From Neodothiora populina (taxonomy: Eukaryota), in NCBI RefSeq assembly GCF_041146345.1, contig NW_027191405.1:992001-1056000 (forward strand): 64,000 nt of DNA, written 5' to 3'. The notes under the pieces are model-generated. The model had not been told where the DNA came from and ran no database searches. It saw nothing but the letters and a program-made list of their open reading frames with translations. The translations under genes and the position numbers were made by a program. Positions 4,576-20,660 of this stretch are shown one piece after another (the first letter of the stretch is position 1; each line of letters starts with the position of its first letter).

Positions 4576-6301
4576 GGTTTTGGCCCTTGTGTTCTACACT
4601 GGACTCAAAGAAGGTGTCTGTGTTTGTGGCTGACTTGTGCAAAGAGCAAAGATGGAGGTATCTTCGGATATGCTTTTTGTTCTCAGGAGGACTGGCAGAG
4701 GGGCATACAGAGAGTGGATCGAAGGTGTTTTGTGCCTTCCTGAAGCTTTCAGAAGTAAGACAGGCAATCAAGAAAAGTAGGAAAGAACGTCAGAAGACAG
4801 TATAGGCAGGTAGCCTTTCTGATTCACACAAGCGAATGGGCAGTGGTTGAATGCGAATAAGTAGATGGTTCGAACACTAAGACAATAGAACAGGCTATGC
4901 TTTCACTTATTTGACTTGTAGTATGGTCTCGAATGCGACATCAATGGATCCTTTATATGCCATTTCCTATGCTATGCAAAGCGACGAGTACACAGTGACA
5001 CCAACCTGTTTTGATACATCAATAAGAAAGAAGAACCAAGGTCAACGGAAGAATAGAGTATGCAGCAAATAGTTACGTGTCAAGCCAAGGGGGGTTTGTA
5101 TTGTTGGTTGGCTGGTATCCTATTGTCAAACTGCGGTATCGTGCATTGCTATTGTCGTCGGGCTTTGGCATAGCCTATTGTCGGATCAGACGCACAAGCA
5201 ACCCAACCACCCGACAAGTGGCTCATGGCCTTCCGACCTGCTTCCTATTGTCGGCGGCGTGTACAGTAAATACAGTACAGTAGTTCTCCCTGACAACTAC
5301 AGCACAAGAACAATAATATTACTCTGGACAAGTACATATGCCCGCCTGACACACCTTGAATCAATTACTCATTTCGGGCCGATCACTCACGCGCTCACGC
5401 GTACAGTACAGACCTGCAGACGGCTTAACAGAGCCGCCATTGATGCGGTCGGACGGGCTACCCCTGCCGTGCAGCGGGCGGTAAAGCTGGTGCAGGAAGC
5501 GGTTACTACCTCCAGATAGCGAGATGCTTTCGTTGCTAGGTCCTCATGCAGTCCCTTTTTCTCCAATGTCCTGAGTAAAAAACAAAGATCCACCCGCTCC
5601 CCGGCCCATGCGCTTCACGGTGTCTCTGTCGTTACATTACACTTTGAGTTGATTCCGTCCACTGGAAAGGAGCCGGAAGGATATTAGCTCTTTTATTTGT
5701 GCGATCCGGCGTGTCTTCTGACTTACTGTCCACCGACAGCAGAAAGATAGAGAAAGACTAAATGACTCGGGATACCTGTTATCTCAACCTGGTCTCAACC
5801 GCCAATAATGCTGTTGCTCGCATGGTCAGCTGCCACACAAGCACGCGGGATCAAGGATCAGTCAGTCACACTGGACTACTTGTATCTGTCGACACACCAT
5901 CAACAAACCCTCCTCCCACGGACAAGGCGATAGCTTCACAGCTCCCTTTGCCTTGTATCAAATCGGCCTGACTTGCCGAAATCTGGGGAGAGGGAGAGAT
6001 GGAATGGTAGACCTTGCGCCGGCTCGCTTGGCAGGATAACTTCAGCTCGTGCCGTCATCGCCGTTGTCATCGTGGTTTCTCATTGTTTCCTTGCACCTTT
6101 CTCAAACAAGTGTAGAGTGTGTGTCTGTCCACCGCTTCTCATGCAACTCGTCCGCACTTAGTACATTACTAAGGCTGCAAAGGAGATCATTGATCCGCTA
6201 AAGGAGTGTCTTGTCCTGCTCCGTACTGACTTTCATTTCTTCTTTTCTTTATTGTTGTGTATTACCGGGCTGGCTTCCTGAGCTCTTCCGAATCTTCGAC
6301 C

Positions 6302-7265
6302 ATGGCGTCCTCATCGTCTTCCAGTCGATCTAGTCGTCACCACCAGAAATCGTCCTCTCTGAATCGTGCCTCGATTGCTGCTCAGAAAACTGAAATCATC
6401 ATTCATGTCTATGACCTCCTTCCGGTATGTCAAATATATACATAGGACATCGGGCATCTCGAAGATAGATGGAGACTGATTCTGAACACAGCCTGGACGC
6501 CTTTCCTCACTTCTCTGGACCTTTGGAGGGTCACTTCTTCACTCCGGCGTTGTCATCAAAGGCAAGGAGTATGCATACGGTGGTCACGACCGGAAAGGAG
6601 TAAGCGGAGTATATTGGACTCGACCAAAGCTCGAACCTCCAGGTGGTACCTTTAAATGCGAGATCTTGCACGGTTTCACATTTCAGACGGAACAAGAAAT
6701 CAATCAGATTATATGTGAGGTACGACATACTGCCAGTAGTCTCAGCAAGCGATTGTGACGAAAGGTGAGCAGACTTCAGAATGCTAACGTGAAACATCGA
6801 CGACAGACCTCTAGCAAGTTCCAGGGCACCTCGTACAACCTTCTCTCGAACAATTGTAATCACTTCACGTCTTATCTGGTCGAGCAACTCACCTCGAAAC
6901 CCGCTCCCACCTGGATCAACCGGGCCGCGAGCATTGGTCTCGCCATGCCATGCGTCGTGCCAAAGGAATGGGTGTCACCACCTGACCACGAGACCGCAGA
7001 CGGCGAATTGCTGGAGGAAGATGAAGAAGATGACGACGAACATGATGAGGACGATGAGAACGCCGCCATGTTGGCTAGCGATCGCAGACGACGTCGCAGG
7101 GAGCAAAAATCACGTTCACGCTCTTCGTCTGGCGCCACCACTCCTCGGCATAATAGGCTCATGAGTAGAGATCAGACGCCTCCGCCCCGAGTTGTCAGTG
7201 TGAAGGACACCAGTGGCCGACAGATGCCTGCCAGTGAGCGGGCACCCTTACCGAATAAGAAATGA
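6302..7265 (+). CDS. PPPDE/DeSI-family (DUF862) desumoylating/deubiquitinating isopeptidase
   Basis: Exons 6302-6424, 6492-6719 and 6807-7265. Motifs HVYDL, LLHSGVVIKGKEYAYGGH (catalytic His) and YNLLSNNCNHF (catalytic Cys), plus PTWINRAASIG. Confidence 0.92.
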
Positions 7266-8117
7266 CTCCCGGCCGCGAAGCGCAAGGAACGAAGCCGAAA
7301 CGCCAGAGTGTTCTCTGCTTGCAACAAGGACCAAGACACCAGTCAGCGCAACTGTGTTGTCATGCCTCGCATGATTGGATGCGATGCCTTCCAGGACACT
7401 CAAGGTGACAGTCAACGTCACTGCGTCTCTTCTGCTCCTCCTGTTGTCGCACCTCGCATGATTGGTTGCGACGCCTACGAGCCTTGATGCTTCGCCATTA
7501 TCCGGATGATCAAATTATCGACTCCTCCGCCCGCATAGCAGGGCTTTGGAGAAAATGCAGTGCTCATTGACATTATGAGCACGCTCACTGCGAACAGTGT
7601 ATACAGCGACGTTTGTTGTTCATGTCTACTGGTTACCACATAGCCGAACAGCGGAGCCACGCGATGACAGCCCCGTTCCGGACCACAACAGCCTTCACTA
7701 TAAACGCTGCTAGAAGTGTAATACGCCGGCCAGCAGCATCCCGCTGCCGTCGTCCGAACGCGCCGTCATCGGGGCTGGATCATAACGCCACTAAAAACAC
7801 CACAACCTTCTCCGTGAGAGCTGGATGCCCTAGCATGTTCACAAAGAACCATAATCAATCGTACATCCTCGACACCCTCTCCGCAATGGCATTCGATTGC
7901 GCGAGATGCAGCAAGACCACAACCCACTGCACCCACAGATGAAGCTCGGCAGCAATGAGCGGGGACAAGAGCGAGATGCCAAAGTTTCGAACCTCTTGAG
8001 ATGACCCTGACTTCGAGTCCAATGAGAAGCCCCATTAAGAAGCAGGGAAATCAAACATGATGTGCTCTTCCTCATATACACAGGTGTGTACTCAGAAAGT
8101 ATGATATCAAGGGTTCA

Positions 8118-8453
8118 TTGAAAACCAAGGACGAATACCAGAGTCCGGGGGGTGTGGATGTGCTCGAAGAGGACGTCATTATATATGCAAGAATGAAAAC
8201 TGAGAAAGTCAGAGAGGGAGGACTCGAAGCCCAGAATAAAGGGCTCGAATTCTGCAGAGCTATATACAGCTTTGTCGGGAGGAGAGCAAGGATAGAGAAG
8301 GGGAAAAGAAATGCATAGGCTGAGGTCTGCAGTAGACAAGCTGTACTCCAGTAGTAAGAACGAGACATAATTTCCCATCTCAAAGCATACATGAAAGAAT
8401 AACTACAAAGATCGAATTGTGAGATAATCATGGAGAAGGCGGAGGGGAACTAG
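8118..8453 (+). pseudogene. Possible decayed coiled-coil coding remnant
   Basis: One frame reads protein-like (ARIEKGKRNA*AEVCSRQAVLQ**ERDIISHLKAYMKE*LQRS). All internal stops are TAG/TAA, compatible with CAG/CAA-to-stop transitions. Confidence 0.25.
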
Positions 8454-18854: not shown

Positions 18855-20660
18855 AGCTCGTCTACCCCATAACGGATCGTACCCATAGTGGATCGCTTTC
18901 GCGTCGCGTGTTCTACCATACTTTCTGTCTATTATCTACTTTCTATACCACAACTACGTAATTACAATGGATCAACGCGAGGCTATGCTTCAACTTGCTC
19001 TCAAAGAACTCAAAAAGCACCCTGAAAAATCAATGAAAGGTGTTGCGCGTGAATTCGGCGTACCATATACCACCCTTAGTCGTAGACGCGACGGCGGCAC
19101 TACTCGACGAGCAAGTCGAGAACAATTACAGAGATTGGCTCCAGATCAAGAGGCCTTCCTTGTAGACTGGATCCTGGAGCAAGATCAGCAAGGATATCCA
19201 CCCTCGCATCTACGTGCTCGCGATATGGCTATTCGCGTGCTTCGCCTCTGTGGTGACACCAAACCCTTAAGTACTCAATGGATTACAAAGTTCATCAAGC
19301 GGAATCCACGCGTCGCCTCTATTATAGGCCGTAGAATTGAGGCCTGTAGAATCAATGGCACCTCGCAGACAGCAATCCAGGACTTCTTCGACCGATTCAA
19401 GCAATTCGAACAAGAATACCAAGTACAACGCGAGAATATCTGGAATATGGATGAGCATGGAATCGCATTAGGTGTGTGCACCAATTCCCAAGTACTTGCT
19501 GCCTCTACAAAGCGACGTACTTATGTTAAGAGTCCACAGACGCGAGAATGGGTATCTATTCTCGAGGCAATATCAATGACTGGACAAGCAATTAAGCCCT
19601 TGATTATCTTCAAAGGCAAAGAGCCACAGAGCAGCTGGTTTGAAGAGGATTGTCCAGACTGGACGTATACAACCTCTGAGAATGGCTGGACGTCGAATAA
19701 TATTGCAATTAACTGGCTGCGATACGTGTTTCTCCCTCAGACAACTCCAGCGACACCATCTACGCGAATCTTGCTTATGGATGGACACGGAAGTCATATT
19801 GATATCGACTTTCTCTGGACTTGTAGAACAAACCAAGTCTACTGCGTATTCCTTCCAGCTCATACCTCTCATGTCTTACAACCATTGGATCTTGGAGTAT
19901 TCTCTCCGTTGAAGCACGCGTATCGAAAAGGCATTTCTGAGCTCTCTCACCTCGACGACGCAGCACCAGTCAAGAAACAACGGTTTATCTAATGCTATAG
20001 CCTCGCACGACGTCAGGCATTGACAGAAAGAGTTATTCGAAGTGGCTGGAAGGCAGCAGGGCTCTCTCCATGGAATCCAGACAAGGTATTGACGTCGTCA
20101 CAAGTCAAGCAACAACCTATTCGTCCAATTACACCTCCAGACAAGATACAGACTCTTGAGCCTGCTATTTGTACTCTAAAGAGCTCACAACAATTGTATC
20201 GTAGCGTACAGAGCTTACGAAAGAGCTGGAAGGCAGATCGAGCGACTGAAAGAGACATGAGATTGATTCTACAAAAAGCTGGTAAAGCAATCTCTCAGTT
20301 GACGACGACGCAAGCTATTCTTCAACAGCGAATACAGACACAAGGCTCACAACTACAACAAGCTTCTTCAGGATTACGTAGACGAGTAATAGTTGATCCA
20401 AATACGCGTTTTGCGAATATTGAGGACATTCGGAAGGCAAAGCTTGAACAAGAAGCTCGTGAGGTACAGAAAGCCACAAAACAGCAGAAATCTGAGGTAA
20501 AAAAGGCTGTAGGAGCGATAATTAGCCATCCAATAGAGACATATCTTCATGAATGGCAAATTGATTGAATGGTTGTATTATAATTACATAGAGTGAGTCC
20601 GAAGTTGCGCAGCTCGAAGCGATCCACTATGGGTACGATCCGTTATGGGGTAGACGAGCT
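18855..20660 (+). mobile_element. Fot1/pogo-family (Tc1/mariner superfamily) DNA transposon, 1806 bp
   Basis: Perfect 44-bp TIRs (AGCTCGTCTACCCCATAACGGATCGTACCCATAGTGGATCGCTT) at 18855-18898 and 20617-20660, flanked by TA at 18853-18854 and 20661-20662. Confidence 0.97.
18967..20568 (+). pseudogene. Fot1/pogo DDE transposase with one in-frame nonsense codon
   Basis: HTH-psq region (GVAREFGVPYTTL), CENP-B-type HTH, and catalytic WNMDEHG, LLMDGHGSH and QPLDLGVF motifs. TAA at 19990-19992 interrupts an otherwise continuous 533-codon frame. Confidence 0.93.

Follow-up and report, generated by a model that had tools for sequence, protein, structure and literature searches.

A coding-like tail with an internal duplication behind the UGA-CU stop codon of a PPPDE/DeSI gene in Neodothiora populina, a candidate for translational readthrough

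Introduction

In Ustilago maydis, the stop codon UGA with CU after it is described as sufficient for readthrough, and an A after this core is described as stimulatory (Stiebler et al., 2014, PMC4207609). Ribosome profiling in Neurospora, as reported, identifies UGA-C as the leakiest tetranucleotide (PMC12790415), and the account available for yeast has UGA-C favoring Cys-tRNA (PMC4748822). Fungal A-to-I editing is described as strongly preferring a U at position −1, and so UAG and UAA; in the same description it is reported in Sordariomycetes and Pyronema and listed as not found in Aspergillus or Botrytis (PMC11156358). The h-type pheromone precursors, as characterized in PMC3068285, need a C-terminal CAAX motif and (LI)GC(TS)VM repeats.

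Here we analyze a PPPDE/DeSI gene of Neodothiora populina that lies in a stretch of 64,000 nucleotides (the window; contig NW_027191405.1, positions 992,001 to 1,056,000, of assembly GCF_041146345.1). An initial annotation, made from the sequence of the window, had proposed that the reading frame behind the stop codon of this gene (the tail) encodes a tandem peptide repeat under selection, which is reached by readthrough or else belongs to a small repeat-peptide precursor or a relic of one. Positions are those of the window, and all features of the gene lie on its + strand.

Results

The gene has three exons: exon 1 (6302–6424), which begins with the ATG at 6302; exon 2 (6492–6719), which encodes the N-terminal half of the Peptidase_C97 domain; and exon 3, whose coding part (6807–7262) ends in a conserved DTSGR..ERAP motif. 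They are separated by two GT..AG introns of 67 nt (6425–6491) and 87 nt (6720–6806). The spliced product of 269 aa is identical to the N. populina protein P0001, carries the NCNHF catalytic motif, and matches Peptidase_C97 (PF05903) with an E value of 3.7e-37 and 127.9 bits (Pfam cut-off 29.2); judged by these features, it is an ordinary member of the PPPDE/DeSI peptidase family. A Pfam scan of 20 ORFs of the window identified the neighbors of the gene as housekeeping genes, and SNF5 was found among the ORFs upstream of it. The window also contains, at 18889–20568 (+), a Tc5/pogo-type transposase ORF (DDE_1, HTH_Tnp_Tc5) whose frame meets a TAA at 19990 and then stays open for 191 codons; this is probably a broken element.

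Behind the stop, as the initial annotation had stated, the frame stays open for 73 codons past TGA-CTC up to a second in-frame TGA at 7485–7487, past which the coding score drops, and translation reproduced the peptide that had been quoted. An open frame of this length is ordinary: at least 73 open codons follow the stop at 6 of 63 proxy gene ends of the genome and in 3 of 37 relatives. The first 22 codons of the tail (7266–7331) are coding-like, contain a basic cluster and an in-frame GTG at 7308, and give the tail a basic and hydrophilic start (GRAVY −0.67). They are followed by repeat copy 1 (7332–7391; 20 codons, 2 Cys) and repeat copy 2 (7392–7478; 29 codons, 2 Cys, 9 + 18 extra bases). 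Both copies keep two short blocks, QDT..SQR-x-C-V and PRMIGCDA-F/Y, and the spacers vary in length. A candidate third, degenerate copy in the first 22 codons was rejected, as 1532 and 1959 of 2000 shuffles scored equally well. Protein, DNA, and exact-pattern searches found the tail as a single copy in its own genome. The consensus of the peroxisomal signal PTS1 is an SKL-like tripeptide; the tail ends in Tyr-Glu-Pro, and so the extended product is not a peroxisomal isoform.

The stop itself is the TGA at 7263–7265. With the CTC that follows it, positions 7263–7268 form the UGA-CU readthrough motif of PMC4207609, with AAA directly 5′; the third base after the stop is C, and so the optimal form UGA-CUA is absent. 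The UGA-C context to which the initial annotation had pointed is thus present, and what it had overlooked is the fuller UGA-CU core and the GTG at 7308, upstream of copy 1. TGACT occurs at 7 of 401 ORF ends of the N. populina genome and at 0 of the 37 relatives, and because it is this rare, the context and the tail appear to have come together in this lineage. A protein search with exon 3 plus the tail, read through, as the query matched 357 proteins. In the 120 homologues listed among them (124–396 aa), no alignment passes 72% of the query, and 78% is where the repeats start; the closest homologues (P0002–P0005, P0009, and P0017) end at most 1–2 residues from the position of the N. populina stop. 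Because homologues terminate at the same place and none of those listed aligns into the repeats, TGA 7263 is, on the evidence of these protein alignments, the ancestral stop of the family.

We found no stimulatory RNA structure near the stop (z scores of −0.68, +1.06, and +0.89); an Rfam search returned no element, and by eye there were no compensating pairs common to both copies. A 12-base inverted repeat (92%; 7232–7243 and 7579–7590) flanks the stop and the entire tail, probably by chance. A survey for a nuclear UGA suppressor tRNA, which covered 8 of 11 pattern matches, found none, and the sole UCA anticodon among 30 loci (from 64 tRNA matches) lies in an AT-rich, mitochondrial-type cluster. 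An ARAGORN "SeC(TCA)" call at positions 23–115 of L185 (G000:C2:1308402) proved, on alignment to Rfam, to be an intron-bearing tRNA-Val(CAC), which makes it a trap for searches of this kind. Mitochondrial-type tRNA clusters that are AT-rich (22%–32% GC) and differ in gene order and spacing were seen at six loci on contigs C9 and C10; two distinct mitochondrial genomes may be present in the assembly, and one of them is perhaps foreign. A TGA-CTA followed by 584 open codons (L179, G000:C3, minus strand) was considered as a second case of readthrough and turned out to be an ordinary intron, with a GTAAGT donor 40 bases upstream of the TGA-CTA and CTAAT..TAG after it.

Sequencing run X2, which is listed as "DNA?", yielded contigs that skip both introns, and one contig ends in 18 non-templated A's behind position 8384. 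The skipped introns and the non-templated poly-A end lead us to read run X2 as spliced, polyadenylated RNA. Genomic DNA has no run of A's behind 8384, and the 18 A's hint at a poly(A) site there. One X2 contig spans 6805–8384 without a joint, and it includes exon 3, the unedited TGA with no other letter at the stop, and the tail. This evidence comes from one data set and the same sample, in the form of contigs from which rare forms are dropped and which do not prove a single transcript; it indicates that the TGA is no assembly error and that the tail most likely lies within the 3′ untranslated region of the PPPDE mRNA, of which the remainder extends from 7488 to 8384. By these contigs, the leader would measure 368 bases or more (5934–6301), and the message would continue for some 1.1 kb past the first stop (7266–8384). 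Runs X3–X5 have no coverage of the tail. In the interval 6690–6834, run X2 contains both spliced and unspliced contigs of intron 2, and intron 1 appears in a spliced contig only; retention of intron 2 may be frequent, and it would cut the peptidase domain. At 8146, within a run of G's, the assembly is two G's shorter than an X2 contig, a possible homopolymer error of the assembly.

The two copies of the repeat allow constraint on the tail to be assessed within a single genome. Over 20 aligned codons they differ at exactly the seven synonymous third positions that the initial annotation had listed and at three residues (N/H, M/A, and F/Y; 5 bases), and their gaps, of 9 and 18 bases, are multiples of three. 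The 7 synonymous changes fall on 12.2 sites and the 5 non-synonymous changes on 47.8 sites (dS 1.09, dN 0.11, dN/dS of about 0.10; Fisher p = 0.001 for copy 1 versus copy 2), in a test made on 20 codons of one hand-made alignment, at a site picked post hoc from a very large scan. When 12 substitutions were simulated under neutrality, at least 7 synonymous codons in a stop-free frame arose in 0.5%–1.1% of runs if any of the six frames was accepted, and in 0.06%–0.18% of runs in a given frame. Stops on the antisense strand, which had also been noted, are present in two of the three frames; the third (7248–7514, in codon register) is open and has a coding-model score of 0.054. Among tandem duplicates in 800 kb of the genome, synonymous-type bias was found in 4 of 11 within long ORFs and in 0 of 9 non-coding ones, the latter being a weak control because the scan was ungapped and caught just part of the target, which it recovered over 35 bases.

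Composition provides a second line of evidence. We trained a Markov coding model on half of 212 long ORFs of this genome; the model is noisy, as a genuine exon, exon 2, scored −0.014. The tail scored 0.211 per codon, compared with a coding mean of 0.146 and a non-coding mean of −0.084, and it outscored 75% of 645 held-out coding fragments and, among stop-free non-coding fragments, 170 of 170. Scores were negative in both remaining sense frames over the tail. Across 16 model orders and splits, the score of the tail was reached by 0–3 of 169–190 non-coding controls and by 0–1 of 30–39 GC-matched controls. One of 57 real post-stop stretches scored higher; it begins at a branch-site-like CTGAC and is probably the end of an intron. 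When the tail was divided into ten-codon blocks, 7 of 7 were positive, and the block with the second stop was negative. The 22 codons from the stop to the repeat favor coding with a likelihood ratio of 3–10, and the 14 codons before GTG 7308 do so with a ratio of 1.6–6; this coding lean of the codons between stop and repeat is what readthrough predicts. With a dN/dS of 0.10 and a coding score above that of the controls, the tail bears coding-type constraint, and it looks protein-coding on two partly independent counts, copy divergence and composition.

Relatives of the gene were collected at 47 related PPPDE loci, of which 3 have no stop inside the contig and 7 are duplicates, leaving 37 distinct relatives; all are distant (41%–75% identity in the best segment), and they include a few that match over just the first half of exon 3. 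Tail-like sequence was found in no frame at any of the 47 loci (best E value 0.61), and in none of the 37 distant relatives are the frame of the tail and the TGA-CT conserved. At six related loci the protein has a C-terminus like that of P0009 and P0017 from Aureobasidium. If this C-terminus is a guide to their assignment, the tail is probably lacking even in members of the same order. In ten of the relatives a conserved gene, which we take to be an Ola1/YchF-type GTPase, lies about 2 kb upstream of the PPPDE gene on the opposite strand. A weak tblastn match of the tail that recurs upstream of the PPPDE gene at several loci was set aside as chance; a conserved gene occupies the other strand there.

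Searches beyond these loci gave the same picture. A phmmer search of 1.84 billion representatives found no genuine homologue of the tail, its two matches being repeat proteins of more than 1,300 aa with summed weak stretches, and spurious. Word searches in a set of 5.8 billion found none at 40–128 aa and confirmed 0 of 14 candidates at 129–2000 aa. Of 451 pattern matches in metagenome contigs none was confirmed; viral contigs contained no match to the tail, the ESM Atlas offered no usable match (a lead of 0.76 for the repeat part is within chance), and Pfam gave nothing above the cut-off for the tail. Among the papers listed in our literature searches, none dealt with this tail or with readthrough of a PPPDE gene in fungi.

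Discussion

The interpretation that we favor, and consider likely while leaving real room for doubt, is that UGA-CU readthrough makes a minor 343-aa isoform of the PPPDE protein. The UGA-CU core, the coding-like composition from the stop onward, and the RNA contig that includes both exon 3 and the tail support this part of the initial proposal. Because UGA is followed by CU at 7263 and the tail is constrained, membership in the UGA-CU readthrough class is probable; readthrough itself, its rate, and the inserted residue we infer by analogy with other fungi. Most ribosomes would halt at UGA 7263 and release the usual PPPDE/DeSI isopeptidase of 269 aa. Because the UGA-CU context would weaken recognition by the release factor, a near-cognate tRNA would be accepted in a minority of cases, inserting Cys most likely and otherwise Trp or Arg, and translation would go on for 73 codons to the UGA at 7485. 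The tail would have been born from 3′ untranslated DNA in this lineage; a 60-nt unit within it would have duplicated long ago, its amino acids since being kept by selection.

As to what the tail might do, our guess, which we put somewhat short of an even chance even if readthrough is real, is that it serves as a mostly unfolded address-and-docking module. A basic, import-like cluster (its PAAKR is presumably equivalent to the start of the c-Myc import signal) would be followed by two Cys-bearing motif copies that bind a partner twice, and a small pool of the enzyme would in this way be sent to another place or substrate. Conserved short blocks with spacers of varying length seem to fit a pair of short linear motifs within an unfolded tail better than one folded domain; an AlphaFold model of exon 3 plus the tail, made without an alignment, was uninformative (pLDDT 47). 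Alternatively, the tail might be a degradation signal, or its Cys residues might form a metal or redox site.

A more ambitious version of the readthrough interpretation, which we regard as tentative and rather doubtful, is that the tail is a new, readthrough-only repeat domain, in which the gain of a leaky UGA-CU exposed 3′ untranslated DNA to translation, and a 20-residue Cys motif duplicated, which selection maintained up to near-saturation of its synonymous sites, the pair of motifs forming a new kind of element, for docking or for metal/redox chemistry, through which a SUMO/ubiquitin isopeptidase is redirected. If this is true, a readthrough-only repeat domain without a counterpart in the protein collections searched would have been invisible to annotation. 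On the readthrough interpretation in general, readthrough would be a route for new protein sequence to arise and persist in filamentous fungi, and a SUMO/ubiquitin-editing enzyme would carry a long, lineage-restricted tail with no peroxisome signal. As a matter of method, two repeat copies in one genome can expose selection on a hidden extension without sequenced relatives.

Several other explanations must be weighed against readthrough. The tail could encode a separate 59-aa protein that starts at the near-cognate GTG 7308 (which has an A at −3), either by ribosomes that re-initiate once past the PPPDE stop or on a nested transcript of shorter length. The initial annotation had objected that the first in-frame ATG, which does lie at 7362, is too far downstream for an independent ORF to account for the repeat; GTG 7308 removes this objection, as every conserved codon of the repeat lies downstream of it. 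Higher-order models give the 14 codons before this GTG no more than a weak coding signal (likelihood ratio 1.6–1.9), as such a protein would have it, but lower-order models score them as coding (ratio 3.4–6.1). A GTG-started protein would moreover need three coincidences, namely the PPPDE frame (1 in 3), 14 stop-free codons (0.53), and UGA-CU (7/401), and word searches found no small-protein homologue of it. We consider this explanation unlikely.

Unlikely to a similar degree is that the tail is a relic, either of a former constitutive C-terminus that arose by loss of the ancestral stop or of a captured gene fragment, which a recent nonsense change has cut off. A relic would account for the coding composition and the old signature of selection without present-day readthrough, and since the relatives compared are all distant, close ones may still have a sense codon at 7263. 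However, the new nonsense change would need to land on the site of the ancestral stop and in a CU context, there is no fused form among the 120 homologues listed or among longer proteins, and the 73 codons contain no frameshift or extra stop. The TGA is also present in the RNA contig, so an assembly error does not explain it. The recent nonsense mutation that the initial annotation had allowed for is disfavored because homologues stop at the same place.

Chance is, in our estimate, distinctly unlikely: a tandem duplication in a GC-rich 3′ untranslated region would have diverged neutrally, its differences happening to fall on third positions. About 10% of stops (6/63) have open frames this long behind them, some 270 diverged non-coding duplicates are expected per genome, the site was singled out post hoc in a very large scan, and conservation was not found. 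Against this, GC-matched controls fall short of the score of the tail in most splits, and a rough estimate, which leaves the coding score aside, comes to about 1e-4 per genome as the product of some 0.24 for proximity to a stop (an assumed factor), 0.0015 for bias in frame, 1/9 for two gaps that are multiples of three, 0.37 for 22 open codons, and 0.017 for UGA-CU. We do not set the probability of chance as low as this product, because the criteria were chosen after the site was seen.

Alternative splicing could place the tail on a minor isoform if a candidate intron at 7194–7280, with donor GTCAGT, a branch-like AATGAC over the stop, and acceptor AAG, removed the stop and joined exon 3 in frame to the tail, swapping the C-terminal motif for the repeats. 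Donor and branch site agree with the consensus in 5 of 6 letters each, the phase fits, the branch site would also explain the TGAC at the stop, and rare forms are lost from contigs. Equally good candidate introns, however, exist at 99 of 212 long-ORF ends, the two real introns of the gene have 6/6 branch sites and CAG acceptors, the exact donor hexamer occurs in 0 of the 15 distinct relative sequences listed, and run X2 lacks the 7194–7280 joint, all of which makes this explanation very unlikely.

Stage-specific A-to-I editing of UGA to UGG (Trp) in sexual development is highly improbable. Stop-loss editing is described as giving C-terminal extensions in Fusarium (PMC13123824), but the base before the A here is G instead of U, and in run X2, one RNA set with no stage given, there is no A-to-G change or other letter at the stop.

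The least credible explanation is a precursor of a pheromone or a ribosomal peptide (RiPP), from which the repeats would be cut out as small peptides: tandem short Cys-bearing repeats, the letters IGC and CVVM, which resemble parts of pheromone motifs, and one Lys-Arg pair early in the tail speak for it, but the tail ends in Tyr-Glu-Pro with CVVM internal rather than in CAAX, its repeats read IGCDA-F/Y instead of (LI)GC(TS)VM, and the single KR precedes the repeats with no Kex2 site between the copies, and so the pheromone proposal of the initial annotation falls. Dikaritins and other Kex2-processed repeat RiPPs have a UstYa gene in the cluster, a signal peptide, and KR-flanked cores. The 8 UstYa (PF11807) matches in the genome lie on contigs C4 and C13, with none on C14 and none among the 20 ORFs of the window, and by eye the basic, hydrophilic start of the tail shows no signal peptide and the tail no KR-flanked cores.

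Compared with h-type precursors, the tail resembles HPP1, as presented in PMC3068285, in its short tandem Cys-bearing repeats with the letters IGC, and differs from it in lacking a C-terminal CAAX, (LI)GC(TS)VM repeats, Kex2 sites between the copies, and an ATG of its own before copy 1. It resembles FgDBF2 of Fusarium graminearum in that a longer isoform would come from sequence behind the annotated stop; the Fusarium cases described there concern edited UAG in Sordariomycetes, whereas the stop here is UGA, whose A follows a G, the fungus is a Dothideomycete, and no edit is seen (PMC13123824). The long readthrough extensions of insects, as set out by Jungreis et al. (2016, PMC5100048), likewise show a coding signature right after a conserved stop, and the exclusions on the checklist given there (a downstream ATG, splicing, coding on the antisense strand, and a recent nonsense change) are the same as ours; the insect signature was obtained from alignments of many species, whereas ours comes from composition and from two copies in one genome.

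In its mechanism the proposed isoform is like the readthrough isoforms of Ustilago Tpi1, Art1, and Rpe1, which, in the description of PMC4207609, share with this locus UGA plus CU, have an in-frame extension on the same mRNA, where the tail most likely lies here too, and need no RNA structure. Unlike those cases, the sixth base is C rather than A, and the tail runs for 73 codons, with an internal duplication and no terminal peroxisomal signal. Tails of the Ustilago type are described as adding a peroxisome signal and recurring across fungi (PMC4207609), whereas this one was not seen in relatives, and it sets the N. populina protein apart from other PPPDE/DeSI (PF05903) isopeptidases, as it is present in 0 of the 120 homologues listed. 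The mechanism, UGA-CU readthrough, is thus already known; what appears to be new, judging from the sequences compared, is a long, non-peroxisomal tail of this kind on a PPPDE enzyme.
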